From: an uncultured Bacillales bacterium
GTDB lineage: Bacteria > Bacillota_I > Bacilli_A > RF39 > UBA660
DNA: 64,000 nt
Direction: 5' to 3'
Assembly (NCBI GenBank): GCA_946539445.1
Contig: CAMNHK010000005.1
Coordinates: 1,025 to 65,024 of the forward strand
Shown: positions 9,359-64,000 of the stretch, piece after piece
Layout: the number at the start of each line of letters is the position of its first letter
Position numbering within the stretch: position 1 is the first letter of the stretch
Translations under genes and position numbers: made by a program
Notes under the pieces: generated by a model
Seen by the model: only the letters and a program-made list of their open reading frames with translations
The model's database searches: none
What the model was told of the DNA's origin: nothing

Positions 9359-9408
9359 CTTATCACCTATTTATGTATATGAAAAAAAAGGTTCTATTTG
9401 AACCTTTT

Positions 9409-9723
9409 TTATTCCATTTGTTTTTTCGTCTTTAAAATGTATACAGAACCGGCTGATACGATTAGAACTCCTATCCATGCCGTTACCCCTGGTGTTGTTG
9501 CGGTATCTACAGCATCAATCACTAATACTCGATCTTCTTCTCTCGTTGGTTGAATAGGATCTTCGATGGTAACTGGTTCTTGTTCTTTAATTTCTACTTT
9601 TTCTTTTGGATTTACTTTTTTAGCTTCATTTTTCGTAGCGAGATGAATGACTAACCAAACTACAAAGACAACCACTAATACCAATAGAATCCATTTAATA
9701 ATACTTCTTAAAAAATCACCCAT
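9409..9723 (-). CDS. Small bitopic membrane protein, unknown function
   Basis: N-terminal and C-terminal hydrophobic helices and a basic C-terminal tail (KTKKQME). Confidence 0.4.
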   Translation of the reverse strand: MGDFLRSIIKWILLVLVVVFVVWLVIHLATKNEAKKVNPKEKVEIKEQEPVTIEDPIQPTREEDRVLVIDAVDTATTPGVTAWIGVLIVSAGSVYILKTKKQME

Positions 9724-9775
9724 ATCCGATATCCTCCCTACGGCTATTATAGCATATTCTACGAAAAAAAGAAGA

Positions 9776-11980
9776 TTATTCTTCGGAACTTTCTTCTTTT
9801 TCTTCTACTTTTTCTTCTTTTTCTTTCTTTTCTTTCTTCTTAGGAGCTGGTAGAGCATCTTTTCTTGAGAAGTTTTGTCTACCTTTTTTGTCAGTACCTA
9901 GTGCTTTTACTATAATTTCATCTCCTACAGAAACGACGTCTCCCGCTTTTTCTACTCTTTCATGAGCAAGTTGAGATACGTGAACTAATCCTTCACATCC
10001 TGGCCATAATTGTACGAAGCATCCGAAGTCTTCTACTTTTACTACTTTTGCTTCATAAATCTTACCAACTTCTACTTCTCTTACGATTTCTTCAATCATA
10101 GCACGTGTACGATCAATGATTTCTTGGTTAGAGTGATAAATGATAACTCTTCCATCATCTTCTAATTCTACTTTAACGGCATTAATATTGGTTACTTCCG
10201 TTACGTTAGAAGCTTCACAAATAATCTTTGTGATCGTTTCTCCACCTTTACCAATAACGTCCTTGATCTTAGCAGGATTAATTTGGAAAGTAACCATCTT
10301 AGGAGCATATTTTGATACTTCTTTACGTGGTTCTTTAATTTGTTTTGCAATTACATTTAAGATTTCCATACGAGCCTTTTTTGCTTGAGCTAACGCTTCT
10401 TTTAAAATTTGTTCCGTAATTCCACTAATCTTAATATCCATTTGTAGAGCGGTAATTCCGTTAGCCGTTCCAGCTACTTTGAAATCCATATCTCCTAAAT
10501 GGTCTTCCATTCCTTGGATATCCGTTAGAATTGTATAATCTTTTCCATGAGTAATTAGACCCATAGCAATTCCGGCAACGGGAGCTTTAATTGGAACTCC
10601 GGCAGCCATTAGAGACATACATCCAGCACAAATACTTGCTTGAGAACTTGATCCATTTGATTCTAGAATTTCCGATACAACTCTTATGGTATATGGGAAT
10701 TCTTCTTCACTTGGAATTACTTGAGCAAGAGCTTTTTCTCCTAAAGCACCGTGACCAATTTCACGTCTTCCTGGTGCTCCATATCTTCCGGTTTCTCCTA
10801 CTGAAAATTGTGGGAAGTTATAGTGAAGCATAAATCTCTTTTGATCTTCCATACTTAATCCATCAATGATTTGATGTTCGTTTAAGGCTCCTAATGTAGT
10901 AATGGATAATGCTTGTGTTTCTCCACGAGTAAATAAAGCAGACCCATGAGTTCTTGGTAATAAATCAATGTCCGTTGATAATGGTCGAATTTCATCCATC
11001 TTACGTCCATCCGAACGAATTCCTTCTTTTACTACAATACTTCTGAATAATTCATATTCGATGTCTGATACAACCATTCCAACTTTTACAAGAAGTTCTT
11101 TTAGTTCTTCTTCTTTCATGGTATCTTCATTTTCTTTGGTGAATAATTCATTCATTTCTTCTTTGATTTCATCAATTGCAGCATATTTCTTTAGCTTATC
11201 TTTGATACGAAGAGCTTTATCCATTTTTTTCGTAATTAATTTTTCGATTCTTTCTCTTAGTTCTGGTTCTGGAGTTAGAGTTTCATATTCCATTTTCTCC
11301 TCACCAATTTCTTTGATGATTTTCTCTTCGAATTTGATTAATTCTTTTACAGCTTTGTGTCCAAACATTAAAGCTTCTAGCATTACTTCTTCTGATACTT
11401 GTTTGGCACTAGACTCTACCATGTTAATAGCGTCTTTGGTTCCAGCAACGGTTAATTCTAATTCAGATACTTCTAATTCTTCTGGGGTTGGGTTAATAAT
11501 AAACTTACCATCTACTCTACCAACTTTTACTCCAGCGATAGGTCCATTAAATGGAATCTTAGAAATAGATACTGCTAGAGAAGAAGCAAGCATTGCGGTT
11601 AATTCTGGAGAACAATCTTGATCTACTGATAAAACCGTAGAAATGATTTGAACTTCATTTTTAAATCCTTCTGGGAATAATGGTCTCATTGGGCGATCAA
11701 TCATACGAGCCGCAAGAGTTGCTGCATCACTTGGACGTCCTTCTCTTTTGATAAAGCCACCTGGAATTTTTCCAACAGAATATAGTTTTTCTTGATAATT
11801 AACTGTTAATGGAAAGAAATCCGATAACAAGTTCACATTTTTAGAAACAACAGCGGCTGTTAAAATAACGGTATCATTATATCGTACTAAGACAGCTCCA
11901 TCTGCTTGTTTGGCTAATTCTCCATGTTCTACAATTATTTTTCGACCATGAAAGTCTAATTCGAATGTTTTCTTTTTCAT
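9776..11980 (-). CDS. pnp: Polyribonucleotide nucleotidyltransferase (PNPase) with Lys/Glu-rich C-terminal tail
   Basis: Two RNase PH domains, KH and S1 domains ([20 protein letters not shown]). Follows rpsO. Confidence 0.95.
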
Positions 11981-11995
11981 TTTTACCTCTCAATT

Positions 11996-12028
11996 CTAAA
12001 AAAAATAGACACTGAAAAAACGTGTCTA
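11996..12028 (-). terminator. Rho-independent terminator/attenuator between rpsO and pnp
   Basis: Minus strand: TAGACAC-9 nt-GTGTCTA hairpin overlapping the rpsO stop, followed by a T-run. Confidence 0.6.
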
Positions 12029-12295
12029 CTTTCTTAATCCTAATTTTTTAATTACTTCACGATAACTTTGGATATCTTTCTTAGCTAGATATTGTAACAT
12101 ATTTCTACGTTGTCCAACTTTCTTAAGAAGTCCTCTACGTGAATGATAATCGTGAGTGTGTACTTTTAAATGTTCTGTTAAATCGTTGATTTCTTTTGTT
12201 AGAATAGCGATTTGTACTTCTGCAGAACCAGTATCTTTTTCACTCTTGGCAAATTCTTTAATTAATGTTTGTTTTTCTTCTTTTGTTAATGCCAT
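12026..12295 (-). CDS. rpsO: 30S ribosomal protein S15
   Basis: 89 aa. [11 protein letters not shown]...[16 protein letters not shown]. Confidence 0.95.
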
Positions 12296-12423
12296 GACTC
12301 AACACTTCCTTTCTTGTAGATTCGCCTAAACCCGGGGTAAGTCGGAAATTCTTACTCTGAGAAAAGGTATTCCGAATTTCTCGGAATCAAATGTATTATA
12401 CTATAATCCTTTTTATTATGCAA
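12296..12423 (-). promoter_or_regulatory. rpsO promoter plus structured 5' leader (possible S15 autoregulatory element)
   Basis: Minus strand: TTGCAT (12423..12418), 17 nt, TATAAT (12400..12395). The ~90-nt leader contains the hairpin ATTCCGA-GAAA-TTCGGAAT and a G/C-rich segment (CCCCGGG). Confidence 0.5.
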
Positions 12424-12433
12424 GTTTTTTCTT

Positions 12434-13276
12434 TTACTCTATTGTGATTTCACTTAATCCATAACTACCATCACTTTGTTTTTTAAATACAAACTTCGTA
12501 ATTGGTAATTGATCTTTTATACGGTTATATACAGGACTATAATCTCTTCCATTATCTAATATTTCCTCTTCGGAAATATCGGTTACTTTGTTACTATCAT
12601 CAAATGGATAGGCTTTGTAAGCATTTGTTTGTGGTCCACAAGTTCCTCCACAATAGCCTGTATATAGTATTTGTGTATTTAAGGTAATGGTATCTTTGGT
12701 AGCTTCTTGATCTAGGTAAAATATATGAAGATTCGCTATTCCTATGCCATCATGCCCATGTCGTCCAGTAAAGGAATACTCATCTGTTTCGGCATTATAC
12801 TGATAAAGAATTCCATCATTTTTTACGAAACAATTAATATCTTCTAATTGGTAGTGAAAATCCTTTCCAAATAGACTTTCAATATAATCTGAAACGTCTT
12901 TTCCAAAGAACTTTCCGTTCGTACTTTTTACTCTTTGTGAAGCAAATAATAAAACATCTTGATTGGTAAGTTCTGCTGTTTTTATTGGCAAGTGTCTGGC
13001 ATGTAATCCTACTAATAAATCTAATTTTTCTATTAGGGAATCACTTACTTCTATCGTATCATTATTTTGTTCTTCCCCCTCTTTTTCTGTTATTTCTTCT
13101 TTTTCCGAAACTTCTTCTTGTTGTTTTGTATTGTCTTCTGGATGATTTGTGTCAATTAATTTGTCATAGGCAATATAGCCAATTAATAAAGCAATAATCA
13201 CACATAGAATTATTACTAGAACCGAATTCCCCTTCTTTTCTTTTTTTGTTTCTTCTATTCTTTCTTTTTCTTCCAT
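12434..13276 (-). CDS. Membrane-anchored hypothetical protein
   Basis: Acidic N-terminus, one TM helix (VLVIILCVIIALLIGYIAY), and an extracytoplasmic domain with CGGTCGP. No family recognised. Confidence 0.4.
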   Translation of the reverse strand: MEEKERIEETKKEKKGNSVLVIILCVIIALLIGYIAYDKLIDTNHPEDNTKQQEEVSEKEEITEKEGEEQNNDTIEVSDSLIEKLDLLVGLHARHLPIKTAELTNQDVLLFASQRVKSTNGKFFGKDVSDYIESLFGKDFHYQLEDINCFVKNDGILYQYNAETDEYSFTGRHGHDGIGIANLHIFYLDQEATKDTITLNTQILYTGYCGGTCGPQTNAYKAYPFDDSNKVTDISEEEILDNGRDYSPVYNRIKDQLPITKFVFKKQSDGSYGLSEITIE

Positions 13277-13368
13277 TTCTATTCCTCCATCTTTTTCATC
13301 CTATCACTTTTAAAGGGAATGGTCTATCTTTTTCTTTTTATTTATGATATCTTTAAGTTGGTGATAGT

Positions 13369-14070
13369 ATGAAATCTTTAAAAAAAATACCGAGACAAAC
13401 AAAAATGATTATACGAGGGGTTCTTGTTTTCTTACTTTTTTGGTTTAGTTCCCTATTTCAGTATATTCCTATTTCTTTTTTTCATTGGGATACGAAAACC
13501 TTAACTCCTCAACAAATTGTTTTATTATCTGTGTTTTCTAGTTTAATCATTACTTTTATTTTATTCTTTGTTTATCGAAGGGAATTAAAAAAGGAATTTC
13601 TTATTTATAAAAAGAATTTCGCTGAAAACTTTGATATCGGTTTTAAGTATTGGATGATTGGTTTTCTTATTATGATGGTTTCCAATGCTATTTTAGTTTT
13701 TCTTTTGAAAGCAGGAAGTGCTGGTAATCAACAAATTGTTCAAAAGATGGTCGATGCTCTTCCTTGGCTTATGTTAATTGATACCGCTATTATTGCTCCT
13801 TTTAATGAAGAAATTGTTTTCCGTAAAACTATTAAAGATGCTGTCTCTTCTAAATGGTTATTTGTTGCGATATCCTTTGTTTTATTTGGAGGAGCTCATG
13901 TGATTAGTACGGCATCTAGTTTTTTAGATTACCTTTACATTATTCCTTATGGAGCCTTAGGTGGTGCTTTTGCTCTTGCCTATTGGGATACGGATAGCGT
14001 ATTCACTTCTATGGTTATGCATATGATTCATAATTCTGTTTTAACCATTGGTATGATTTTTTTCTTATAA
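13369..14070 (+). CDS. CPBP (CAAX/Abi) family intramembrane metalloprotease
   Basis: Polytopic. Motif 1 NEEIVFRK, motif FGGAH, motif HMIHN. Confidence 0.8.
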   Translation: MKSLKKIPRQTKMIIRGVLVFLLFWFSSLFQYIPISFFHWDTKTLTPQQIVLLSVFSSLIITFILFFVYRRELKKEFLIYKKNFAENFDIGFKYWMIGFLIMMVSNAILVFLLKAGSAGNQQIVQKMVDALPWLMLIDTAIIAPFNEEIVFRKTIKDAVSSKWLFVAISFVLFGGAHVISTASSFLDYLYIIPYGALGGAFALAYWDTDSVFTSMVMHMIHNSVLTIGMIFFL

Positions 14071-14095
14071 GATACTGTCTAGTATCTTTTTTTTT
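14070..14095 (+). terminator. Rho-independent terminator after the CPBP gene
   Basis: AGATACT-GTCT-AGTATCT hairpin followed by T9. Confidence 0.65.
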
Positions 14096-14127
14096 GTAAA
14101 GTTTTTTGAAAAACATTGTAAATCTAT

Positions 14128-14156
14128 TTGCCTAGTTTTACATCCTATGATATATT
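14128..14156 (+). promoter_or_regulatory. Candidate sigma-A promoter of the family A1/B1 operon
   Basis: TTGCCT (14128..14133), 17 nt, TATATT (14151..14156). Overlaps the 10-nt CCTATGATAT motif also found upstream of the WXG100 genes. Confidence 0.4.
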
Positions 14157-14215
14157 GAATACAAGATAGGTGGAAATTTTTATTCCACTCTTTTGTGGAA
14201 AGGAGATGTAAAGAA

Positions 14216-14944
14216 ATGGATTTAACTTCTAAATTTACATTGAATACTAGTAATTATACGAACACTTTAAAAATGAATGATGTTATCAGTGGAAATGTTC
14301 CTCATACTGAAAATGTTTTGTATGTTCCAGGAATTGATAAAGCCGCTTTTATGGCAGCTTTAAAGGCATTAAAAGAAAATGTTTCTGCTACTGTAGAAAC
14401 AACAGATGAAATGATTCATACCATTGATAATGGTCTTGCAGAAACGAATTCGAATCGTTTTTATCGAAATGGCGATGCGGTAAAACAAGTAACCAATATG
14501 AATACTTTATCAAGCGATATGAAAGGTTTGATGGAATTATTCGGACAAATCAGTGAGGACCGTATTGCTGCTGCCATTGATTCTTATAATTCTTCTTTAG
14601 GAGCATTAAAGAGAACTACTAGAAAAGAACTATTAGAAGATGCTGCACAAGAAGCAAATGGACAAAAATGTAAAAAGACTGAAACATCTCGTGCATTTTA
14701 TCCAAATGATGGAGCTAACCATTCATACTATAATGAAGAAAAAAATGGGACTACTAAGGTTGTAACGAAACGTTATAAATCTGGCGTTGTTAGTTCCGAT
14801 GGAAAAATTGAATATATTACCAAAGTAGAAACATATACATGGATTCAATGTAGTGATAATGTATCAATTACAGAACATCGTTTCCGTGAAGTTGGCATTG
14901 ATTTGCCATATAGTCCTAGTAAAATTGTGGATATTGATTTATAG
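14216..14944 (+). CDS. Uncharacterised protein, family A copy 1 (paralog of 16740..17462), WXG100-locus associated
   Basis: RBS GGAAAGGAG lies 10 nt before the ATG at 14216; the track GTG at 14195 is probably spurious. Shares VLY-x-P-x-IDK, NSNRFYR, YN-x-x-L-x-x-LKR-x-TRK-x-L-x-x-AAQ-x-x-NG and a C-terminal LPY...IVD with copy 2. Confidence 0.7.
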   Translation: MDLTSKFTLNTSNYTNTLKMNDVISGNVPHTENVLYVPGIDKAAFMAALKALKENVSATVETTDEMIHTIDNGLAETNSNRFYRNGDAVKQVTNMNTLSSDMKGLMELFGQISEDRIAAAIDSYNSSLGALKRTTRKELLEDAAQEANGQKCKKTETSRAFYPNDGANHSYYNEEKNGTTKVVTKRYKSGVVSSDGKIEYITKVETYTWIQCSDNVSITEHRFREVGIDLPYSPSKIVDIDL

Positions 14945-14955
14945 GAGGCGTATTT

Positions 14956-15849
14956 ATGAGTGAACTAAAAAAATATGATGATAATTTCTTATCAGAATCT
15001 ATTTCTAATTCTTCTACCATAGGAAGTAATGCAGATTCTATTTCGAGTGATATTCAACATTTCTTACATTCTGTTGATCCAAGGGTTTTGGGCTATTTTG
15101 ATGCAGATGTTACTACTAAACTTAATCAATACTCTACTACTATGGAAAACGATTCCGATAATATGCAGCATTTTGGGCAATGGTTAAATGATACTTATGA
15201 TGATTATGTTCAAACGGTTACTAAGGTAAAGGAAATTGCTAATTCTATGGACTTTAATAAAGTGGATAGTACTATTAATGGAGTTCATGGAACGGAAGGA
15301 AAACCAAAAGAAGAGGAAGAAAAGAAAGAGGAAGAAGAAGTACTAGTTCTTACTCCAGAGGAAGAGGAAGAAAGAAAAAGAAAAGGCCTTATTGGAAGAA
15401 GAGGTTCCGATGGTGGAGAACAAAATGCATTTGCTGAAGGCGGAAATGGTTCAATCGGTGGACTACAAAACAATGCCGCTTCCATTTCTCGTGGTAGTGG
15501 AAATAATACAGGAAGCTATGCAAGTTTAGTTGGACTTGGAGTTGCCAGTGTATTAGAAGGTGTTGGAGCTTTAGTAGAAGAAGCCAAAGAAAAGAAGGAA
15601 GCTCAAGAAAGAATGGCTGATGAAACACTAGTAGAGGAAGAAAAGAAATCTTCTAATGATAAAGATGACAGCAAAGAGAAAGAGGAGAAAAATGATAATG
15701 TTCTTCTAGGTATGGGAATTGGTCTTGCTGCGGCAGCTGCTGCCGGTAAATTCGTTTTATCCGATGATGATAAGGATGAAGATGAAGAAAAAGCAATTCA
15801 AAAATATATGCCACAAGATTTTTCTAACTCCGATGAAAACAAAGCGTAA
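14956..15849 (+). CDS. Uncharacterised protein, family B copy 1 (paralog of 17505..19076): helical N-domain, KE-rich linkers, two Gly/Ala-zipper helices, acidic tail
   Basis: RBS TAGGAGG before the ATG. N-terminus is homologous to B2 (SI-x-NS...D-x-RVL-x-Y...DNM-x-x-FG-x-WL). Hydrophobic G/A segments YASLVGLGVASVLEGVGALV (15517..15576) and VLLGMGIGLAAAAAAGKFVL (15697..15759), then SDDDKDEDEE.... Confidence 0.7.
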   Translation: MSELKKYDDNFLSESISNSSTIGSNADSISSDIQHFLHSVDPRVLGYFDADVTTKLNQYSTTMENDSDNMQHFGQWLNDTYDDYVQTVTKVKEIANSMDFNKVDSTINGVHGTEGKPKEEEEKKEEEEVLVLTPEEEEERKRKGLIGRRGSDGGEQNAFAEGGNGSIGGLQNNAASISRGSGNNTGSYASLVGLGVASVLEGVGALVEEAKEKKEAQERMADETLVEEEKKSSNDKDDSKEKEEKNDNVLLGMGIGLAAAAAAGKFVLSDDDKDEDEEKAIQKYMPQDFSNSDENKA

Positions 15850-15853
15850 AAGA

Positions 15854-15880
15854 AATGTGTAAATCACATTCTTTTTTTTT
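15854..15880 (+). terminator. Rho-independent terminator after family B1 gene
   Basis: AATGTG-TAAAT-CACATT hairpin followed by C+T9. Confidence 0.55.
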
Positions 15881-15894
15881 GTCAAAATTTGACA
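15880..15894. promoter_or_regulatory. Perfect 15-nt palindrome TGTCAAA-A-TTTGACA (candidate operator)
   Basis: Read directly from the sequence, between the B1 terminator and the WXG100 genes. Confidence 0.3.
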
Positions 15895-16005
15895 AAAACT
15901 GTTTTTTTATTTACTCCCCTTTTCTACCTATGATATGATTATATTGTAACAGGGTAAGGTTACTTGCATATGTTATATGTATTATTTGAAAGGTGGTGTA
16001 AAAAT

Positions 16006-16290
16006 ATGGTAAGACAAGATAGTGGTGAATTAAGATCTATCGCTGCTGAAATTGATGAAAAAGGAACTGAATTCTTAAATGCTAAAACTGCAATGTTTGA
16101 TGAGATGGAAGCAAAATTAAAAGCATCTGAGGATACTGGAGCTGCTTGGTATGGTCCTAAAGCTGCAGCTTTCTTAGCTGAATTTAAGGCAAAAGAAGAT
16201 GACTTTACTAACGCTTATAACAATATCGTTCAAATGGCTGAGAACCTAAAAGCTCAAGCTGAAGCTTGGGAAAACTTCGAAAACGTTTAA
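16006..16290 (+). CDS. WXG100 family (ESAT-6/EsxA-like) protein
   Basis: 94 aa from the ATG at 16006 (RBS AAAGGTGG). Helix-turn-helix layout with a central W-Y-G motif (TGAAWYGPKAAAFLAEF). Confidence 0.8.
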   Translation: MVRQDSGELRSIAAEIDEKGTEFLNAKTAMFDEMEAKLKASEDTGAAWYGPKAAAFLAEFKAKEDDFTNAYNNIVQMAENLKAQAEAWENFENV

Positions 16291-16337
16291 TTCTGATATT
16301 ATATCAGTCGTATTTCAATTATAGGAGGTGAATACTT

Positions 16338-16649
16338 ATGGCAGTTCAATCAGGAATGAACTACGGAGAAGTAGATAACTTAGTTAAATTTTTAGATAAT
16401 AAAAAAGAAGAAATTATTGCTGTATTTGAAGAACTTCAAACAAGTACTCCAAGTAGAATCGCAGCTGCTTATGATGGTAATGCAGCAGAAGCTTATAAAC
16501 AAACTTTAGCTGCACAATCTAAAAAAATGAGTGAAACAATCGATACTATGATTGCTTCTTTAAAACAAGAGACTGCACAACAACAAGCTGATTATCAAGC
16601 TCAAGATCAAAGAATGCAAAACTCTATTGAAGCAGCTAGAGGAAATTAG
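16338..16649 (+). CDS. WXG100-like protein with degenerate motif (Y-D-G)
   Basis: 103 aa, RBS TAGGAGGTG. IAAAYDGNAAEAYKQTL and the Q-rich C-helix (QADYQAQDQRMQNSI) parallel firmicute EsxA (IAANWEGQAF...QEQDQQLS). Confidence 0.65.
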   Translation: MAVQSGMNYGEVDNLVKFLDNKKEEIIAVFEELQTSTPSRIAAAYDGNAAEAYKQTLAAQSKKMSETIDTMIASLKQETAQQQADYQAQDQRMQNSIEAARGN

Positions 16650-16658
16650 TTTTTTAAG

Positions 16659-16723
16659 GAATTACGTTTGTAATTTCTTATTAGTGCGGATTAAGTTTTT
16701 TAGTCCCTACTAATAAGAAATTA
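16659..16723 (+). promoter_or_regulatory. Two mutually exclusive RNA hairpins between the WXG100 pair and family A2
   Basis: Hairpin 1: 16659..16666 pairs with 16671..16678 (8 bp, GTTT loop). Hairpin 2: perfect 14-bp stem AATTTCTTATTAGT (16673..16686) with ACTAATAAGAAATT (16710..16723), 23-nt loop. The arms overlap at 16673..16678. Confidence 0.45.
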
Positions 16724-16739
16724 ATAAGGAGGGATTTAA

Positions 16740-17462
16740 ATGGCAGTTGTTGCGGATTCTGGGGTAGCAGGAGGAACTTTATGTACGATGGAGAGTGTTT
16801 TAAACGAAAGTTGCCCTATGGTAGCTGGAGTTTTGTATACTCCTAAAATTGACAAAGGAGCTGTTATTGGTTCTATCAGTACTTTAAAGCAAGATATTGA
16901 TTCAAATCGTTCTTCTGCAGAAGCATTAATATCGGATATTAATGGTGTTTTATCGGCTAGTAATTCTAACCGCTTTTATCGTGGAACTACTGCTACTACT
17001 CAACTTGCTACTTTAGATGATATTACCAATGATATTACTACTTTATTAGGAGTTTTATCCAATATCGATGTTTCTAAAATAGGAAATGCAGTTGATCGAT
17101 ATAATGCCAAACTTGCTAAATTAAAACGAGATACTAGAAAGAAATTAGCTTATGAGGCGGCTCAAGCTATTAATGGAAAAGTTATCAGTTCTGAATATCT
17201 TTCTACTAGTTGTGATTTGTATTGGACTCCTCCTGAACGAATAGAGCATTGCGGTGATAAAATTCATGCTTATCATTATTATAATTATGTTATGACTGAT
17301 AAAAATGATGACTATGCTTTAGCCGATTATAGTTATACAAAAGACTATATTGTTGCTATTCAATATACTAGATTTAGTATACTAGACTTAGAAGCTGCTA
17401 TTACATCTGTCGGTGGTAGTTTGCCTTACAATGTAGGCGCTATCGTTGATTACGAAGAATAA
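16740..17462 (+). CDS. Uncharacterised protein, family A copy 2 (paralog of 14216..14944)
   Basis: RBS AAGGAGGG. Motif sharing as listed for copy 1. Confidence 0.7.
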   Translation: MAVVADSGVAGGTLCTMESVLNESCPMVAGVLYTPKIDKGAVIGSISTLKQDIDSNRSSAEALISDINGVLSASNSNRFYRGTTATTQLATLDDITNDITTLLGVLSNIDVSKIGNAVDRYNAKLAKLKRDTRKKLAYEAAQAINGKVISSEYLSTSCDLYWTPPERIEHCGDKIHAYHYYNYVMTDKNDDYALADYSYTKDYIVAIQYTRFSILDLEAAITSVGGSLPYNVGAIVDYEE

Positions 17463-17504
17463 AGTGATATTATTTTTTAAATAGATAAAAAAGGAGGACT
17501 CCTA

Positions 17505-19076
17505 ATGGATCAAGGATTAGTTACTTATGATTTAGCGGGAATTGATCAAAGTATTACCAATTCTGCTAGTGTCAGAGATTATATGGAAAGTATTTCCGGT
17601 AATATTTCTACCTTTTTAGGTTCTTGTGATAATCGTGTATTATCCTATTATAGTGGTGATTTTACTTCTGCCCTACGTGGTTGCAAGAGTTCTTTTAATA
17701 ATGACTATGACAACATGGATTTATTTGGAAAGTGGCTAGCTGAACAAAATTCAGATTTAAATGTTACGAACCAAAATGTCAATGGAATTGCTAATTCTAT
17801 TAATCCTGAAACTATTAATAGTGAGATTGGGACGGTTGCTACTTCTCCTAAAGATGCTTCTTCTCTTGATTTAAGTTGTGTAGTTGGAACTCTTGGAGAT
17901 GTTCCAACGAATCCAGCAGATGTGGCTGCCTTAGGATTACATTTTATAAACCCGGAGGCTTTTCAAGCATTACCATCTGAAGTGCAAGATGCTGTAAAAG
18001 CCGCTCTTAAAAATGTAGGATATGATGATAATACAATTGCTGATATCGTGGGAGGAAAAATTGGAATTAAGGCTTGTGTCTTAGATACTGTTTCTGATAC
18101 CTTAGAAAGTGTTTTATCGGAACATCCTGACCTTCGCAAGACTGTTATTGATTTGTATGGATTTGATCCTTTCGATGACGAAGGACACGTTAACGATGAT
18201 TTATTAACCGCTATTTTACTAATTGATGCTAAAGACCCTAATGATCAATATGATATTATTAAACTATTGCATGATCAATATGGTGTGGATATTGTGGATC
18301 CTGTTCAGTTATCTACTTTAACTGGTCAGTTAGAAAGTGTTATTTCTGCTCATCCGGATATCCGAGCTATGTTATTACAAAAATATGGATTTGATATTTT
18401 TAATGCGGATGGAACTATTAACAAGAGTCGTTTAGCTATCGCTATGATTATGGATAAAGCTAGTGGTGAGGACAGTTTTGATTTATTAGCTTTCTTAAAA
18501 GCTTATAATGCCAATTCTTTAGCAGGAATTCAAAACCATCTTATCAATCCTACGATTCAAACTACTACTGGAACATCTGATATTTCTTCAAATGTTTTAA
18601 CAAACGTAGGAGCTGGTTTAGGAAACCGTTCAAAAGCTACCAGTTTAGGGGGAACTCTTCTTGGTGCTACTCATAATGTTTCATCTAACTCTACCCTTTC
18701 AGAAGAGCAACAAAAACAATTATTCCAAAACTATGTTGAAAGGGTTCAACCTACTGCCGCTAATAGTGAAGCTAAGAGACAAAACACAGCTGCTATTGCC
18801 TTAGGACTTGGTAGTCTGGGAGCTCTTGGTGTTACTGGTGGTGGAATTGCTGCTAACAAGAAGGAAAAAGAAGAGAAAGAAGAAAAAGAAGAAGTAATTA
18901 CCAAAGAGGAATTTGATTTGTTCCGTACAGGAGACGGTATTGAAAATAAAGAAGATAGTAAAAAAGACTGGTTGTATGGTCTTGGTATTGGACTAGCTGC
19001 TGCCGCTGGAGTTGGAAAAGCTCTCAGTGATGATGAAGAGGATGACGAGCAAGAATCGGATGCCTTTCAATTATAA
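17505..19076 (+). CDS. Uncharacterised protein, family B copy 2: B-type N-domain, internal tandem repeat, two Gly/Ala-zipper helices, acidic tail
   Basis: RBS AAAGGAGG. N-terminus homologous to B1. Repeats at about aa 196-268 and 271-340. G/A helices at 18786..18854 and 18969..19022. Tail SDDEEDDEQESDAFQL. Confidence 0.7.
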   Translation: MDQGLVTYDLAGIDQSITNSASVRDYMESISGNISTFLGSCDNRVLSYYSGDFTSALRGCKSSFNNDYDNMDLFGKWLAEQNSDLNVTNQNVNGIANSINPETINSEIGTVATSPKDASSLDLSCVVGTLGDVPTNPADVAALGLHFINPEAFQALPSEVQDAVKAALKNVGYDDNTIADIVGGKIGIKACVLDTVSDTLESVLSEHPDLRKTVIDLYGFDPFDDEGHVNDDLLTAILLIDAKDPNDQYDIIKLLHDQYGVDIVDPVQLSTLTGQLESVISAHPDIRAMLLQKYGFDIFNADGTINKSRLAIAMIMDKASGEDSFDLLAFLKAYNANSLAGIQNHLINPTIQTTTGTSDISSNVLTNVGAGLGNRSKATSLGGTLLGATHNVSSNSTLSEEQQKQLFQNYVERVQPTAANSEAKRQNTAAIALGLGSLGALGVTGGGIAANKKEKEEKEEKEEVITKEEFDLFRTGDGIENKEDSKKDWLYGLGIGLAAAAGVGKALSDDEEDDEQESDAFQL

Positions 19077-19077
19077 T

Positions 19078-19108
19078 AAAAAAAGCACTCATTATTAGTG
19101 CTTTTTCT
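19078..19108. terminator. Bidirectional terminator shared by convergent genes
   Basis: A-run, AGCACT-7 nt-AGTGCT, T-run. Overlaps the stop of the 19095..20000 gene. Confidence 0.7.
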
Positions 19109-20000
19109 TTTGGTAAACAACGGCTCCATCTTGCATAGAATTATTTCTCTCTAAATCACTTAATCCTGGAAAGAATAAATAATCATAGTCACTTGGGAAG
19201 TATGGAAATACTCCGCTTGGATCTAATAAATATTCACTAGGATTCTTACGATTTTGACATTCAAACATGTAATATAACAAAACAATTCCATCTTCTTTTA
19301 GACTATCCAACATATTTCGGATAGGAGCTTTGGCATTTATTTTTTTTATAAAATCGAAGATATTGGATAAGAAAATAACATCATATTGATTGGGGAAAGA
19401 CTCCGTACTGATATCTCCCGTATGAAAAGAGACTTTCGTATTCTTTATTTGCTCTTTTGCTTTTTCATACGAGGTATCGGTTGCTAAATAAGGGTTTATC
19501 TTTTCTAGAATTTCTTTTCCTTCTTCATCCGAAAAGAATAGTCTTTGTCTTACTAATTGTGAATTTTCTTCTAATAATTCTTTCCAAAATTGATAGGACT
19601 CTTTATTTTCTTCGAATAGTGTCTCCTCTATTCTTTCCCATATTTTTTTCGAAAAAGCATCTATGTTTCTTTTTCTTCCAACCCAACTAAAAAATTGAAA
19701 AAATTCTTCTCTAGATAGTTTTAAAAGAGCTGACTTCTTTAAATAATAGTATTCTTCGGTAAAAGGACAAACATCTAATACCGTAATATTCTTACATCCT
19801 TTTAAAGATGCATTTAAGGTCTGATCTGCAGAAGATCCGACTGTTAGAAGGGATTTACCCTCTAAATCAAAATTATCGATATATCCGGCTATATTTTCGG
19901 TTGCAAAAGGATATAGTTTTTGAAAGTTTGTTTTTTGAAAAATATTAGGTCGTTTCCCTACTATTTTTTTCGCTAATTGTATTTTTTCTTGTATCTCCAT
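19095..20000 (-). CDS. Class I SAM-dependent methyltransferase-fold protein (DUF3419/BtaA-like)
   Basis: LLTVGSSADQTLNASLKGCKNITVLDVCPFTEEYYYLKKSALLKLSREEFFQFF matches my recollection of the DUF3419 N-terminal pattern. Also DVIFLSNIFD. Confidence 0.45.
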   Translation of the reverse strand: MEIQEKIQLAKKIVGKRPNIFQKTNFQKLYPFATENIAGYIDNFDLEGKSLLTVGSSADQTLNASLKGCKNITVLDVCPFTEEYYYLKKSALLKLSREEFFQFFSWVGRKRNIDAFSKKIWERIEETLFEENKESYQFWKELLEENSQLVRQRLFFSDEEGKEILEKINPYLATDTSYEKAKEQIKNTKVSFHTGDISTESFPNQYDVIFLSNIFDFIKKINAKAPIRNMLDSLKEDGIVLLYYMFECQNRKNPSEYLLDPSGVFPYFPSDYDYLFFPGLSDLERNNSMQDGAVVYQKKKH

Positions 20001-20058
20001 AGTAATCCCCTTTTTCTTGGTTCCCTATTATATCACATTTTATTCAAAAAGAAAAGAA

Positions 20059-20625
20059 CTATCGTTCTTTTTGGTCTAATATTATTAAAAGGAAACTTAC
20101 TATTGTTTGAAATAGAATGGTGGTAGAGACCATTCGAACAAGATAAGAAAATGTCATTCCATCTGTATATTGTAGCAATTGAAAAAATACGAAAATAATA
20201 CAAGATAGAATATAACATCCTAATTGCCATCCTATATTTTTATGATTCTTTAGAATATATAAATATATCAATAAGTTTATAAATTGACTGACTACATATC
20301 CACAAAAATCTCCTGCTAAAGAGAGAAGAATCAAATCACTATTCATTATAAAAGATAAGATAGAAGTAAAACTGACAAATATTACAGAAGAGATAGCAAT
20401 AGCAGATACTCCTTTTTTATAATCAAATCTTTTGGTAATAAAGTTTATAATATAATAGGAAAATGGTAAAAGAAATAGAGAAAAAGAAAATCTAGTTCCC
20501 CAGAATGGAAATGTATAACTCTTGATGGATTGATATAAAATCATCAAGGTTGTTACAAATAAAACATATTCTCCACTATCTTCTTTTTTATTTCTTTTTT
20601 TCATCCTTTCTTCTCCTTTTGACAT
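20059..20625 (-). CDS. Polytopic membrane protein, unknown function
   Basis: 5-6 predicted TM helices. Start uncertain because it overlaps the upstream gene. No confident family assignment. Confidence 0.4.
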   Translation of the reverse strand: MSKGEERMKKRNKKEDSGEYVLFVTTLMILYQSIKSYTFPFWGTRFSFSLFLLPFSYYIINFITKRFDYKKGVSAIAISSVIFVSFTSILSFIMNSDLILLSLAGDFCGYVVSQFINLLIYLYILKNHKNIGWQLGCYILSCIIFVFFQLLQYTDGMTFSYLVRMVSTTILFQTIVSFLLIILDQKER

Positions 20626-21289
20626 TATCCATTAAACTATAGATAGCTAGACAAATAACACATCCTAACATAACGGTTATGACAATTAAGTAACCGCCTA
20701 CTCCTGCTGATGTTGGGATAGGTTCTAACACACTTTCTTGTTTATCCTTATTTAAGGTATAATCACTATTTAAATTATAGGTATACCATAAGTTATAAGT
20801 TCCTGGTGTTTCCGTTTCTTCTAGAACACAGCCAAATGTTTCACTGATATCCGTGTAGTGAAAAGGGATTTGATAAGTCATACTACTCTGTATTTTTTTC
20901 TCTAATTGCACTTCGTCATAATAGTTATCCATATCATAAGGAGAATTGGATAAGTTTTCTAAAATAGAATATAAATAAAAAGATTCAATATTATTCTCAA
21001 TGATCGGAATAGTAGGATTTTCTCCCATCATAATTACTCGTCCGGAACCAAAATAAAGTTTATTATCTCTCCATTGATAAGGAATCGATACAAGACGAGA
21101 ATCGGAACCTTCTAACTGTACTTCAATGGTGGTATCTTGCATTTTTACATGCGTTATTTTGATATTTTCATCCACTACTGTATTTTCAATTTTATTGATC
21201 ACTTGTATTACCTCTTCTTGAGTATCAAGAGCAAGTATTTGGATAGGAAAAAGGCAAATAATAAGTAATAGATATAGGTATTTTTTCAT
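20588..21289 (-). CDS. Secreted protein with C-terminal membrane anchor, unknown function
   Basis: Signal peptide MKKYLYLLLIICLFPIQILA. C-terminal TM helix plus basic tail KRRRKDEKKK. Confidence 0.45.
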   Translation of the reverse strand: MKKYLYLLLIICLFPIQILALDTQEEVIQVINKIENTVVDENIKITHVKMQDTTIEVQLEGSDSRLVSIPYQWRDNKLYFGSGRVIMMGENPTIPIIENNIESFYLYSILENLSNSPYDMDNYYDEVQLEKKIQSSMTYQIPFHYTDISETFGCVLEETETPGTYNLWYTYNLNSDYTLNKDKQESVLEPIPTSAGVGGYLIVITVMLGCVICLAIYSLMDNVKRRRKDEKKK

Positions 21290-61075: not shown

Positions 61076-61104
61076 ATTATATCTTATTGTTCCTTATTTT
61101 TCAA
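61076..61104 (-). promoter_or_regulatory. Near-consensus sigma-A promoter driving the T-box leader
   Basis: Minus strand: TTGAAA (61104..61099), 17 nt, TATAAT (61081..61076). The -35 element lies within the 3' end of the DUF4176 gene. Confidence 0.65.
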
Positions 61105-61375
61105 TACTTTTATGATTTCTTATTTTTAAATTTTCTAAAAATTCTCTTTCTTCATAATTCATAAATCCTTGAAAGATTACTTCTTTTATTTCAGAATGAT
61201 TAAAAACACAAATGGTATCGGAGCGAATGGTTCCTTCTGGATACATACATCCGCAGTAATCAAATATGTGGTCTGGATACTCTGGTGTACTGACGGAATA
61301 TCCTGTAATCATTAATTTCTTTTTTCCACTATTTAATATTACAATACTACCTAATGGTAAATAATTATTTGTCAT
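61094..61375 (-). CDS. DUF4176 family protein (T7SS-locus-associated small protein)
   Basis: MTNNYLPLGSIVILNSGKKKLMITGY...FDYCGCMYPEGTIRSD...FNHSEIKEVIFQGF matches the DUF4176 pattern as I recall it. The ATG at 61375, with RBS GAGGAGGAA, overlaps the upstream gene's end. Confidence 0.7.
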   Translation of the reverse strand: MTNNYLPLGSIVILNSGKKKLMITGYSVSTPEYPDHIFDYCGCMYPEGTIRSDTICVFNHSEIKEVIFQGFMNYEEREFLENLKIRNHKSIEK

Positions 61376-62534
61376 CGTCTGATTCCTCCTCGAATAAATA
61401 AGATTCTCCATAGAATTTATTTAGAACTTCTCGATCTCTCTCGGCTTGATAAGGAACTGGATCATAATCGTCTAACATAAACTCTGTATTGTTGTGATGC
61501 TCTATTGGTTGATAGTTATCTTCCTCATTCGATATAGGTTCCTTATAATCTTCTAATTTGAAATTCTTTTTGGATTTTTGCTCGCTAGCTACTACAGCAG
61601 CAATGGATCCAGCAATGCCGGCGGCTCCAATCCCAATTCCAATCGGAACGGTATTTATGTCATTAGACGTTTCCGTTGGAGTCTCTGGGGTTGGGATAAC
61701 AGTCGTTTGTGTTTCATTATTTCCATAATTATTTAATTCTCTTAAAACTTTATTTCCTATTTCTCCCAATCTCTTTTTTGTTTCTTCTACTTTTATAAAT
61801 GATTCGGTTGCGGATTCTTCATATTGATTTTGGATGGTTGCTAGTCTAGTAGCCTCTTCTCTTGTGACTCCATATTTTGTTTGATATTCTTCCCGAATTA
61901 GATTTATATTGTTTTGCTCTTTGGCAAAATTCGAAGAAGCTAAACTGGTTACAGAAGCCCCTGTTCTTTCTTGTCTCCAAATAGCCATATCTTGATTTAC
62001 TTTGTTCATTTTTTCCAATTCATCTAGTTGTGGATATTTTTTTTCTAATTCTTCTGCCCATTCCTCTAATGAATGATAATTATCTGGGTAATCGGTTAAA
62101 TTATTATTGATCATATAGTTTTGAATGGTATCATCTATATTTTCTCGATAAGTATCTACACTTTGAGATATTTGAATTTCCCCACTAGGTAAGACTACTT
62201 CTTTCTTAGGAGAATATAGTTTCATAATACTTTTCAAATCTTCTTTTCCTAGAGAATCCGTACTATAATCCCGTATTGTTTTTGTAAGAGATTCTTCCAA
62301 TTCTAATACTTTTCTTTCTACTGAGTCCAACAAACTAAATATAGAATCCATAGAGTCTTTATAATCATTTAAACAGTTGTTGTGTTCAAAGTTGATATCT
62401 TTTATTACGCTTTCTATCTCTAAAAAGATTCCTGATAGGTCTCTTGTTTCTAAGCATCCTTCGATAGAGGATAAGGTTTCGATGGAGGTGGTTAAGCGAT
62501 CTACATCGATACAACAAGTATATCCATTAGCCAT
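61365..62534 (-). CDS. Uncharacterised protein: helical N-domain, Gly-zipper TM helix (61584..61649), acidic C-tail
   Basis: 389 aa. VPIGIGIGAAGIAGSIAAVVA followed by a 70-aa D/E/Y-rich tail. Same end architecture as family B proteins and the partial ORF at 63485..64000. Confidence 0.65.
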   Translation of the reverse strand: MANGYTCCIDVDRLTTSIETLSSIEGCLETRDLSGIFLEIESVIKDINFEHNNCLNDYKDSMDSIFSLLDSVERKVLELEESLTKTIRDYSTDSLGKEDLKSIMKLYSPKKEVVLPSGEIQISQSVDTYRENIDDTIQNYMINNNLTDYPDNYHSLEEWAEELEKKYPQLDELEKMNKVNQDMAIWRQERTGASVTSLASSNFAKEQNNINLIREEYQTKYGVTREEATRLATIQNQYEESATESFIKVEETKKRLGEIGNKVLRELNNYGNNETQTTVIPTPETPTETSNDINTVPIGIGIGAAGIAGSIAAVVASEQKSKKNFKLEDYKEPISNEEDNYQPIEHHNNTEFMLDDYDPVPYQAERDREVLNKFYGESYLFEEESDDDK

Positions 62535-62545: not shown

Positions 62546-63058
62546 CTATATTGAACGAATCGCATCTAAGCGTTCTTTTAACTTATTAATGCGATTATTG
62601 GTATCATCAATAATATCATCCAAACGTAATTGTTGAACATTTTTTATATTTCCATTTTGATTCATTTTATCTCGTAGTAATAAGGTATTATTTAAAATTT
62701 TTTCTTCTTCTAATATTTTGGAACCTAAGGCTTCCATCAACTGTTCTTTCTCTATTTGTTTTTGAATGGTGGAATCCTTTATTATTTTTTTCTTTAATGA
62801 ATCATATTCTCTTTGAATTGCTTCAATTTCTTCTAATATTTCTTTTGCTTTCTCATGCGCAGGAGATGTTCCCATAATATTTAAAGAAAGAGTATCTAGT
62901 CCTCCATAAAACATTTCTTGTTTGATTCCTTCGGCTATTACGGAATTCATATAGGTATGATACGTTTGAAATTGATCTTCTATTTTTTCCACTACTTTCG
63001 TTGGATTTATAAGATCATTTCCTTCTGTTTTCCATGTTATCCAATCTACTTTCGGCAT
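62546..63058 (-). CDS. Helical (coiled-coil) protein, unknown function, first gene of a three-gene unit
   Basis: 170 aa from the ATG at 63058 (RBS TAGGAG). Heptad-rich C-terminal half. Confidence 0.5.
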   Translation of the reverse strand: MPKVDWITWKTEGNDLINPTKVVEKIEDQFQTYHTYMNSVIAEGIKQEMFYGGLDTLSLNIMGTSPAHEKAKEILEEIEAIQREYDSLKKKIIKDSTIQKQIEKEQLMEALGSKILEEEKILNNTLLLRDKMNQNGNIKNVQQLRLDDIIDDTNNRINKLKERLDAIRSI

Positions 63059-63087
63059 ATTTACCAACTCCTACTATTCTATAGTAT

Positions 63088-63484: not shown

Positions 63485-64000
63485 TTATAAATCGGTTAAT
63501 TCGTCGTTGCCTCTAGCAACGTAACCATCATTTTCAATTGCTTGATAACTGAAATCGTCTTCATCTTCTAAATAGTTTTCTTTATCAGCTTCTGATGTAT
63601 CTTCATAAGAGAATTCCATATCGTTTTCTTCGTCTCCGTCCCACTCTTCTGTGTAGATATCATCATCTCCACCATTATCACTATTCTTCTTACGATCTAT
63701 GTATGCTTTAGCTCCTATTCCGGCAGCTGCTGCAGCACTTAATCCGGCTGCAATTGGAATTACTGCGCTACCTCCACTTCTACTTGTTGGAGAAAGTGGG
63801 GTTGAAGATGTAGGAACTTTTGAATATTTATTTCCTTTAATAATATCATCAATTGATGTGGTTGAACCATCCACTAAATCTGCTAAATCAACATCATCAT
63901 ATGGTGAACTTGGTGTATATCCTTCACCACTATATCCGCCACCACCATGGTTGTTATTAGTTGGTGATTCTGGATTAACTCCTGGATTAAATGGTGTTGT
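63485..64000 (-). CDS. C-terminal part of a larger protein (continues past window end): Gly/Ala-zipper TM helix (63701..63766) plus acidic tail
   Basis: The frame stays open from 64000 (…TTPFNPGVNPESPTNNNHGGGGYSGEGYTPSSPYDDVDLADLVDG…). The track 'M' at 63874 is an internal GTG. VIPIAAGLSAAAAAGIGAKAYI is followed by a D/E-rich tail. Confidence 0.6.
   Translation of the reverse strand, partial: TTPFNPGVNPESPTNNNHGGGGYSGEGYTPSSPYDDVDLADLVDGSTTSIDDIIKGNKYSKVPTSSTPLSPTSRSGGSAVIPIAAGLSAAAAAGIGAKAYIDRKKNSDNGGDDDIYTEEWDGDEENDMEFSYEDTSEADKENYLEDEDDFSYQAIENDGYVARGNDELTDL

Follow-up and report, generated by a model that had tools for sequence, protein, structure and literature searches.

The 64,000-nt stretch of DNA analyzed here (the window) comes from an uncultured Bacillales bacterium and carries two separate loci whose proteins share a C-terminal architecture. 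Four proteins are concerned, B1 and B2 in locus 1 and C389 and D in locus 2. Each ends in a four-part module consisting of a low-complexity spacer rich in Ser, Thr, Pro, and Glu, a Gly/Ala-rich helix of the small-xxx-small type, a Lys-rich flank, and a polyacidic stretch of 20-75 aa with a conserved end. The proteins and the parts of their modules are listed below, where dG19 is the insertion energy on a simplified, position-independent Hessa scale.

14956..15849, plus strand: B1, 297 aa; helical N-domain (residues 1-100), variable middle, helix 1, KE-rich linker, helix 2, acidic tail
15517..15576, plus strand: B1 helix 1, residues 188-207, YASLVGLGVASVLEGVGALV; dG19 +3.9 kcal/mol
15700..15759, plus strand: B1 helix 2, residues 249-268, VLLGMGIGLAAAAAAGKFVL; dG19 +2.8 kcal/mol
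15760..15846, plus strand: B1 acidic tail, SDDDKDEDEEKAIQKYM..., beginning SDDDKDEDEE; 11 Asp/Glu versus 5 Lys/Arg
17505..19076, plus strand: B2, 523 aa; B-type N-domain, duplicated ~85-aa module, helix 1, KE linker, helix 2, acidic end
18786..18854, plus strand: B2 helix 1, AAIALGLGSLGALGVTGGGIAA, followed by NKKEK; dG19 +3.2 kcal/mol
18969..19025, plus strand: B2 helix 2, WLYGLGIGLAAAAGVGKAL; dG19 +4.8 kcal/mol
19026..19073, plus strand: B2 acidic end, SDDEEDDEQESD; 19-aa tail
61365..62534, minus strand: C389, 389 aa; helical N-domain (residues 1-110, NFEHxNC), variable helical middle, Pro/Thr/Glu-rich spacer, helix, Lys-rich flank, acidic tail
61584..61649, minus strand: C389 helix, VPIGIGIGAAGIAGSIAAVVAS; dG19 +1.6 kcal/mol
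61407..61454, minus strand: conserved element of the C389 tail, PYQAERDREVLNKFYG, within a 72-aa tail (22 Asp/Glu versus 9 Lys/Arg)
63485..64000, minus strand: D, the C-terminal 171 aa of a large protein cut by the window end (homologues, 476-1410 aa)
within 63485..64000, minus strand: D juxtamembrane motif, TSIDDIIKGNKYSKVPTS, preceding the D helix
63698..63766, minus strand: D helix, VIPIAAGLSAAAAAGIGAKAYI, then DRKK; dG19 +3.6 kcal/mol
63488..63697, minus strand: D acidic tail, ending ARGNDELTDL; 74 aa, 28 Asp/Glu versus 6 Lys/Arg

The 69 open reading frames (ORFs) of at least 100 aa in the window were screened for uncharged stretches, 15 aa or longer, in which Gly plus Ala account for a fraction of at least 0.5 and which lie no more than 130 aa from the C-terminus, followed by a net-negative tail. 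Only B1, B2, C389, and D passed, with tail net charges of -6 to -22. In this composition screen, the remaining hydrophobic helices of the window have Gly plus Ala fractions of at most 0.27 and tail net charges of -2 or higher. A preliminary description of the sequence had reported Gly/Ala helices followed by acidic tails in four proteins of two loci, and that observation stands: every segment it quoted lies where it was placed, including positions 15517-15849, which encode the last 110 residues of B1. It had also called the N-terminal region of C389 unrelated. BLAST between the locus-1 and locus-2 proteins of the window found nothing, and the N-terminal parts of C389 and D have no detectable likeness to B1 or B2.

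Alignments of the B, C389, and D families show that the architecture is kept in orthologues and that the module is the most conserved segment within each family. For B1, which has only six database homologues, mean pairwise identity within the family is 0.69 in the N-domain, 0.42 in the middle, 0.64 in helix 1, 0.44 in the linker, 0.89 in helix 2, and 0.79 in the tail. G252, G254, G256, LAAAA, G264, K265, L268, S269, D271, D274, E277, and A280 are invariant across B1, its homologues, and B2. B1 and B2 are paralogous, with 38% identity over the N-terminal 107 aa (E 2e-17) and a further match between their last helices. The C389 family (39 homologues) consists of an N-domain of ~110 aa, a middle that is variable or absent, and a near-invariant helix, INTVPIGIGIGAAGIAGSIGAVI, after which come a Lys-rich flank and, within an acidic tail, the element PYxAxRxKExLNKFY. 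In the D family, the last ~130 aa are almost invariant and comprise, in order, TSIEDVIKGSKyTKIPTS, a Ser/Thr-rich stretch, VIPIAAGLSAAAAAGIGAKAYMDRK, ~60 acidic residues, and the end KYDARSsEELADLQ-COOH, while the N-terminal and middle parts vary between loci. The tails are strongly net-negative in all four proteins, as the preliminary description had it, but they are not merely acidic, since they end in conserved elements specific to each family: the two motifs just given for C389 and D, and AIQKYM for B1. In B1 and B2 the terminal element of the module is a second Gly/Ala helix, with the B-family form DWLYGLGIGLAAAA. The homologue search with the D tail returned only short contig-end fragments. 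The diversity of D N-domains was read from individual loci instead.

The six Gly/Ala segments have dG19 values of +1.6 to +4.8 kcal/mol, as compared to -0.4 to -4.5 for 13 ordinary membrane helices encoded in the window. The segments are therefore marginally hydrophobic and are not ordinary anchors. Helix 1 of B1 had been counted among the Gly/Ala-zipper helices. Its form in orthologues, GAGLSQAIEGVDAIL, contains a conserved Glu and has a hydrophobic moment of 0.25-0.34, so that it is amphipathic and not a clear membrane span. The two-helix plan of B2 recurs in B2-like proteins of related genomes (loci L001, L031, and L032). Tails measure 72 aa in C389 and 74 aa in D; those of B1 (33 aa) and B2 (19 aa) follow the second helix.

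In the AlphaFold2 (AF2) model of C389, the N-domain is a confident helical bundle with a predicted local distance difference test score (pLDDT) of 80-92, whereas the helix and tail have pLDDT values of ~30. AF2 thus does not bury the helix in a soluble fold, the arrangement that the preliminary description had set against membrane-inserting helices. A Foldseek search with the C389 model against the PDB gave no match at E <=0.001, and the C389 family profile found nothing among PDB sequences. The B1 model is unusable (8 sequences, pLDDT 33). The first 59 residues of C389 (62358-62534) contain the invariant residues N48, F49, H51, C54, Y58, and K59 and frequent Cys at positions 7, 8, and 27; these conserved residues could form a metal or disulfide site in the predicted helical bundle.

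The genes that surround the four proteins in the two loci are as follows.

13369..14070, plus strand: CPBP/Rce1-like intramembrane protease (Pfam PF02517, E 7e-16; NCBIfam CPBP models below cutoff)
14195..14944, plus strand: A1, soluble 249-aa partner, 11 nt upstream of B1; uncharacterized family with conserved NSxRFY and LPY
15964..16290, plus strand: W1, WXG100-like small helical protein (TIGR03930, E 9.5e-4; PF06013, E 0.035; both below cutoff)
16338..16649, plus strand: W2, WXG100-like small helical protein (TIGR03930, E 1.4e-5, below cutoff)
16740..17462, plus strand: A2, partner of B2 and A1 paralogue by sequence comparison
19080..19106, no strand assigned: terminator-like hairpin ending the locus-1 operon, common to the convergent gene
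61094..61411, minus strand: small DUF4176 protein 3' of C389 (PF13780, E 1.3e-24; 9DCS, E 9.3e-13, versus 0.87 for the large LtcA, 9DCR)
62546..63067, minus strand: H173, helical partner of C389 with the N-terminal sequence VDWITWKT; always directly upstream of the C389 gene
63140..63466, minus strand: small DUF4176 protein, 108 aa, directly 3' of D (PF13780, E 7.6e-24; 9DCS, E 1.6e-7)

Several of these genes place the two loci in the context of a type VIIb secretion system (T7SSb). LXG toxins are accompanied by two small helical partners; W1 and W2 are such a pair in locus 1, and the D gene of L005, L011, and L023 is preceded by two genes for proteins of 91-112 aa. The counterparts of W1 and W2 in L027 and L029 match PF06013, among them the L029 counterpart of W1, and the true W1 start is probably the ATG at ~16006. 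In L024 and L023, the C389 homologue has an EssC-like gene at a distance of 4-5 kb; the encoded proteins (1524 and 1487 aa, respectively) contain an FHA domain and two FtsK/SpoIIIE stretches. In L023, an IS3 transposase gene is directly upstream of essC. In L024, EssC is followed by a 92-aa ORF that is a YukD-like candidate by position and size alone. The whole L024 region (561-17630) contains EssC, this ORF, four small helical proteins, three intervening genes, the H-C pair (the counterparts of H173 and C389), and a 2300-aa protein. Two of the intervening genes are on the minus strand and encode a polytopic membrane protein (375 aa) and a Cys-rich protein (134 aa), and the third is a 90-aa ORF; the 2300-aa protein has a transglutaminase core (PF01841, E 5e-9) and Gly-rich hydrophobic stretches and is probably a giant T7SS effector. 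A 1542-aa ORF in the window (30897-35525) was considered as EssC, but it is PolC.

The window DUF4176 proteins belong to the small class (93-108 aa), with 9DCS rather than the large LtcA as the best PDB match. The association concerns locus 2 only, where both genes match PF13780 at E ~1e-24; locus 1 has no DUF4176 gene. The membrane-depolarizing toxin TelD requires 9DCS, a small DUF4176 protein, for stability and export; the authors of that work (PMC12478183) speculate that proteins of this small class bind to the helices with which such toxins insert into membranes. Long disordered middle regions are a described trait of DUF4176-associated toxins and are also present in the D family. Long D-family proteins (L011, 6642-9110, residues ~110-300; L016, residues ~196-275) additionally have a second Gly-rich, marginally hydrophobic region after the N-domain, for example AGVATGYLAMGGLLSGYAA, with dG19 values of +3.8 to +4.9; a similar GEGF... 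motif occurs in the giant protein of L024.

Gene order in 22 related loci follows the scheme D - DUF4176 - (D - DUF4176) - H - C - (DUF4176). H and C are neighbors in 22/22 loci, and the pair is always present in one copy at the 3' end; D is present in zero to two copies and is followed by DUF4176 in most loci, and C389 has its own DUF4176 gene in 8/22. L024 and L022 have H-C without any D-type gene. H173 is 37-69% identical to its counterparts and has no match in Pfam or NCBIfam. As listed, the DUF4176 ORF overlaps the 3' end of the C389 gene by 47 nt (61365-61411). The ATG at 61375 is the likelier start because the Pfam match begins at residue 17; the 11-nt overlap that remains suggests translational coupling with C389. 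The conserved motif in the C389 tail was considered as a DUF4176 binding site and set aside, since the motif is kept in loci without an adjacent DUF4176 gene. Locus 2 runs straight into HD and valS genes. Twenty C389 sequences of one related species are 98-99.7% identical, and C389 is therefore not polymorphic within that species.

In locus 1, A1 and A2 are paralogous (30% identity, E 3e-26), and at the loci examined an A gene always lies directly upstream of a B-like gene. The A family has 47 representatives in a library of 1.84 billion proteins, has no Pfam match, and gave no hit in a PDB sequence search with the family profile. The cassette W-W-A-B (two small helical proteins, A, and B) recurs in L027, L031, L032, and GCA_016648615.1, and the complete six-gene cassette A1-B1-W1-W2-A2-B2 is found between rpsO/CPBP and rbfA in a related organism. 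PNPase, IF2, and NusA of that organism are 92-95% identical to those of the window and flanking non-core genes 47-55%, as compared to 42% for B1, 38% for A2, and 54% for B2; judged by these values, the cassette proteins are fast-evolving.

The CPBP protein encoded directly upstream of locus 1 is a polytopic membrane protein. CPBP/Abi proteins are known as bacteriocin self-immunity factors. The gene adjoins the cassette in L001 and L003, lies ~2 kb upstream in L032, and was not found near the cassette in L027 and L031. With linkage that is not universal, the CPBP protein could be a facultative immunity or processing partner of locus 1.

Two observations concern B2 itself. Residues ~196-335 (18090-18509) hold two copies of a module of ~85 aa, LESVLSEHPDLRKTVIDLYGFDPFDDEGHVNDDLLTAILLID... 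and LESVISAHPDIRAMLLQKYGFDIFNADGTINKSRLAIAMIMD..., whose core, ELYGFDIFNxDGTINKxxLAxAMIMDGK, is kept in the B2-like proteins of L027, L030, L031, and L032; in L030, the module flanks both Gly/Ala helices on either side. It loosely resembles an EF-hand or dockerin-type Ca-binding loop, and no Pfam model matches it. The B2-like protein of L027/L028 (6744-8138) ends ...KEWLYGLGIRRPDQH, followed by a terminator hairpin. Most of helix 2 and the acidic tail are missing from this natural variant, which has the same sequence in two independent samples.

We tentatively favor a reading in which B1, B2, C389, and D are T7SSb-exported membrane-attacking effectors that work like TspA, TelD, TelE, EsxX, and YfjB. 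The N-terminal helical domain, which has no signal peptide, would form together with helical partners the signal for the EssC ATPase. For locus 1, these partners would be the two WXG100-like proteins and the A protein; for locus 2, they would be H173 together with two small helical proteins that, by comparison with relatives, are expected immediately outside the window. In this reading, the Gly/Ala helix is too weakly hydrophobic to enter a membrane unaided. Within the producer, it may be held soluble by this weak hydrophobicity, by its charged flanks (the KE linker and the polyacidic tail), and by a dedicated binder; for D and C389 this would be the small DUF4176 protein, and for B1 and B2 it may be A. 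Once exported and set free, the helix would enter the membrane of a neighboring cell and self-associate through its flat small-residue faces. The inserted helices would then depolarize or permeabilize the target membrane, as described for TspA, TelD, TelE, EsxX, and Bacillus subtilis YfjB. The analysis shows the architecture with its specificity and conservation, the marginal hydrophobicity, the T7SSb gene context, and the link to small DUF4176 proteins, and from these it infers export, chaperoning, membrane insertion, and toxicity. Secreted effectors that insert into membranes were one of two options in the preliminary description. That option is strengthened by the WXG100-like partners, the small DUF4176 genes with their similarity to 9DCS, the EssC genes beside homologues, and a hydrophobicity too low for ordinary anchors, but sequence analysis alone cannot decide between export and attack on the one hand and anchoring on the other.

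T7SSb membrane-depolarizing or pore-forming toxins are functionally the closest known proteins; the window proteins agree with them in gene context and not in LXG or zipper sequence. TspA, TelE, EsxX, and YfjB are precedents for joining a T7SS N-domain to one or more Gly-rich helices at the C-terminus. TspA from Staphylococcus aureus and TelD from Streptococcus intermedius are membrane-depolarizing T7SSb toxins with polytopic immunity proteins of the DUF443 type, often in arrays. Small DUF4176 genes cluster with TspA and TelD systems, and the window DUF4176 proteins are closest to the 9DCS protein of TelD, the toxins being compared by description; however, there is no DUF443-type immunity protein at the window loci. 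TelE from Streptococcus gallolyticus and EsxX from S. aureus are LXG toxins exported by T7SSb, with an extended glycine zipper at the C-terminus. Both have two small helical Lap partners, and a DUF4176 protein binds their central region. Their toxicity depends on a conserved Gly-rich helix at the C-terminus; in the cytoplasm of the producer, a soluble partner, ExiAB in the case of EsxX, sequesters the zipper. Unlike these toxins, the window proteins have neither the Pfam LXG domain nor the strict GxxxGxxxG zipper. TelE and EsxX are neutralized by DUF5085 and polytopic membrane proteins, for which there are no genes at the window loci, and TelE varies between isolates, in contrast to the near-identity of the 20 C389 sequences.

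The yfjABCDEF operon of B. subtilis encodes YfjB, a toxin that depends on the T7SS. In the C-terminal half of this toxin are two Gly-rich helices whose hydrophobicity is weak and falls short of the usual Kyte-Doolittle threshold. Encoded alongside YfjB are the WXG100 protein YfjA and the mid-sized, soluble, chaperone-like YfjC, which resembles EspG. By this description, the yfj operon resembles the W-W-A-B cassette with its two-helix B proteins, and the helices are likewise weakly hydrophobic; the differences are the strict GxxxGxxxG motifs of YfjB and its membrane antitoxins YfjD/E. Outside the T7SS, comparable helices occur in the glycine-zipper bacteriocins and effectors CdzC/D, Tse4, and VacA and in Gly/Ala-rich viral fusion peptides. 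They are short, rich in Gly and Ala, and marginally hydrophobic; they insert into membranes from the outside and associate with one another. These proteins and peptides have other export routes and no sequence relationship to the window proteins, and they lack the Lys-rich flank and long polyacidic tail. When set against the described cases, as they are described, the long polyacidic tails with conserved terminal elements look new. The same applies to the placement of one conserved C-module on variable N-terminal bodies, which reverses the logic of polymorphic toxins, to the uncharacterized A and H partner families, and to the absence of recognizable immunity genes at the loci examined.

Several results weigh against an effector function. 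The preliminary description had called the helices Gly/Ala zippers and likened their GxxxG/GxxxA ladders to those of glycine-zipper peptides, a label that is only loosely justified. Single GxxxG motifs are present in B1 helix 2, B2 helix 1, B2 helix 2, and C389, and relaxed small-xxx-small ladders of four, GxxxGxxxAxxxG or others, are present in 4/6 segments; however, D has no GxxxG, and none of the six segments matches the strict motif of the T7SS literature in a regular-expression search for (G/A/S)xxxGxxxG or GxxxGxxx(G/S/T). A scan of the C-terminal fragments of all four proteins with hidden Markov models (HMMs) at E <=10 gave no Pfam Gly-zipper family (_Omp, _OmpA, _YMGG, or relatives). 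The sole notable Pfam match among these fragments is a subthreshold one of B2 to DUF6732 (E 1.7e-4; 21.8 bits versus a cutoff of 27). By the Pfam sequence test, LXG (PF04740) is absent at E <=0.1 from B1, B2, C389, and the D and C proteins of L011, and at E <=0.05 from nine D-family proteins and one B-like protein; at the level of structure, an LXG-like fold may still be present. Pfam domains of other kinds are likewise missing from B, C389, and nine D homologues; Pfam and NCBIfam scans of the locus proteins, their C-terminal fragments, and ten related full-length proteins returned only DUF4176, weak WXG100, and CPBP matches. The AF2 models of the module carry no structural weight for the reading because their pLDDT is ~30.

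Gene content and evolution add to these reservations. No T7SS core gene lies in the 64-kb window, and no membrane immunity gene is consistently linked at the loci examined, CPBP being adjacent in some only. Related genomes also hold classical T7SS toxin islands with tandem small DUF4176 genes. What looks like such an island lies 3' of valS in L026 (14999-19389). Three small DUF4176 genes in tandem are accompanied there by a helical protein of 145 aa and by a 453-aa protein with several Gly/Ala-rich hydrophobic segments; next comes a 126-aa two-helix membrane protein that is an immunity-like candidate. This arrangement, with a two-helix protein after the toxin, is not present at the window loci. 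In LXG toxins it is the toxin domain that varies, which is the opposite of the conserved C-module and variable N-terminal and middle parts found here. Both loci are syntenic and vertically inherited, and these features, with the near-identity of C389 within a species, are unlike polymorphic toxin arsenals. In the C389 family, 0-1 Lys/Arg and 1-4 acidic residues precede the helix and 2-7 Lys/Arg follow it in the flanks, the signature of a span inserted from the cytoplasm of the producer with the tail inside. Finally, a single helix with a 70-aa acidic tail could not easily span a target membrane from outside.

Several of these points support a rival reading that is possible but less likely than membrane attack, in which T7SSb exports the N-terminal part and the Gly/Ala helix stays in the producer membrane with its N-terminus out and C-terminus in, leaving the flank, tail, and terminal element in the cytoplasm. 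The four proteins would then be T7SS-dependent anchors, serving as surface-displayed factors or accessories of the apparatus rather than toxins, and the tail would contact the machinery or a chaperone. The mean net charge of -2.4 before and +1.3 after the helix argues for this topology in the C389 family, as Lys/Arg-rich flanks after a helix place the tail inside the cell, and KKK or DRKK directly follows the B2-like and D helices; however, D-family flanks are not asymmetric, with Lys/Arg on both sides. Ser/Thr/Pro-rich or PEEPK-repeat spacers precede the helix, as in wall-spanning stalks, yet the helices are far less hydrophobic than the real anchors of the same genome. The near-invariant helix and conserved C-terminal motifs (ELADLQ and PYxAxRxKExLNKFY), alongside variable N-terminal and middle parts, suggest a conserved partner in the same cell. 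The B-like protein of L027/L028 nonetheless has lost helix 2 and the tail. The lack of an immunity gene, the synteny, and the within-species identity of 98-99.7% are all compatible with an anchor, as is the single-copy H-C pair of all 22 loci, including the one beside essC in L024. Against this, the association with small DUF4176 proteins points to a helix that is kept soluble before export, and literature searches found no T7SSb substrate retained by a C-terminal span.

A specific form of anchoring, somewhat more doubtful, is that the module is a novel type VII anchoring or retention signal: T7SSb would thread the N-terminal part out, the helix would lodge in the producer membrane, and the tail would remain bound to the machinery or a chaperone. 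The window proteins resemble Gram-positive LPXTG sorting signals in having a low-complexity spacer, a C-terminal hydrophobic helix, and basic residues, and differ in lacking LPXTG and a signal peptide, in a far less hydrophobic helix, and in the 20-75 acidic residues after the basic patch. Neither an LPXTG-like motif nor an N-terminal signal peptide was seen on inspection of the sequences of both loci and of D relatives, and their acidic tail is a long one. A sorting signal processed by sortase, exosortase, or CPBP was dropped, since no signature motif is present and CPBP linkage is inconsistent. If anchoring proved true, it would represent a new, secretion-system-dependent form of surface display for Gram-positive proteins without signal peptides. 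The small DUF4176 proteins and the H partner would gain a defined client, and the finding would be considerably more interesting.

It is unlikely that C389 and H173 instead form an accessory or protective factor for D-type proteins, for example as a single-pass protein whose related helix would pair with that of D and thereby block self-intoxication or pass D on to the machinery. The fixed gene order, with zero to two copies of D and one H-C copy at the 3' end, would suit such a role. Among cross-family pairs, the C389 and D modules alone share profile similarity (hhalign, 72%), and an HMM of the D module finds C389 proteins. However, L024 and L022 contain H-C but no D-type gene. C389 is accompanied by its own helical partner and, in 8/22 loci, by its own DUF4176 gene, as a substrate would be, and the immunity proteins known for such toxins belong to the polytopic or DUF5085 types.

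Still less likely is that the resemblance between the two loci is a compositional coincidence, with B-type and C389/D-type tails being independent and not needing a common function. The empty BLAST comparison between the loci is what coincidence would give, and so are the profile scores: hhalign of the C-modules gives a probability of 97% for B1 versus B2 and of 72% for D versus C389 (E 3.5e-5), the only cross-family pair with profile similarity, but only 5-35% for cross-locus pairs. By hhalign, cross-locus homology of the module is thus not established, and it is suggested only by intermediates. In B2-like proteins of other genomes, located through the A family, helix 1 is a D-type helix with a basic stop, namely VLPIAAGL... 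in L027 and IIPIMAGLGATGATAGGLGVYMKKK in L032, where IIPIMAGL is followed by KKK. When the D-module HMM was searched against 1475 ORFs from the window and all loci retrieved, D proteins ranked first, followed by the L027 B-like protein (E 1.5e-7), C389 proteins (E 3e-6 to 1e-3), and B2 of the window (E 0.019), all above every unrelated ORF. The two loci also have their T7SS context in common, and the feature occurs nowhere else in the window. These comparisons point to one ancestral module common to both loci, which is probable but unproven, with composition bias as a caveat. A Y-x-A-R terminal motif common to C389 and D was also considered; it is unsupported, as the profile alignment stops before the motif.

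The worst fit, and the least probable reading, is the other option of the preliminary description, classical tail anchoring in the producer with a cytoplasmic N-terminus, post-translational insertion of the helix, and the acidic tail exposed outside: the missing signal peptide, the one hydrophobic segment near the C-terminus, and the ability of the membrane potential to drive acidic segments outward would favor it, but a tail anchor has a strongly hydrophobic helix within ~30 residues of the C-terminus and a short translocated tail, whereas here dG19 is positive, tails of 33-74 aa (19 aa in B2) are long for unassisted translocation, Lys/Arg residues cluster on the tail side and place the C389-family tail inside, and the WXG100-like, DUF4176, and EssC context is left unexplained.

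Membrane-depolarizing T7SSb toxins are a young field, and its questions include how the helix is kept safe before export and what small DUF4176 proteins bind. The loci described here are compact, paired test cases in which a short, sharply delimited, conserved candidate helix is encoded beside its own small DUF4176 protein, and in which a second family, B, uses another soluble partner, A. With them, the known range of T7SS effectors would reach into uncultured gut and rumen Bacilli and take in proteins that LXG and Gly-zipper models miss entirely. All homologue matches are from uncultured gut or rumen Bacilli, which the records of their metagenome-assembled genomes label as 'Mollicutes' or Erysipelotrichaceae, and the window also encodes the sporulation protein YqfD. 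The host of the four proteins is an uncultured, probably spore-forming lineage of gut or rumen Bacilli.

Two further features of the window lie apart from these questions. An unrelated, competition-type system at 46573-48645 (minus strand) encodes an ABC exporter with an N-terminal C39 peptidase, of the type that exports double-glycine bacteriocins and peptides. The block between rpsO and rbfA (12026-24279, compared to L001) is 38-75% identical, as compared to 92-95% for the flanking translation genes. Besides CPBP and the six cassette genes, it contains genes for a methyltransferase of the DUF3419 type, a polytopic protein (188 aa), and a secreted, anchored protein (233 aa). The block behaves as a fast-evolving island at a fixed chromosomal position.

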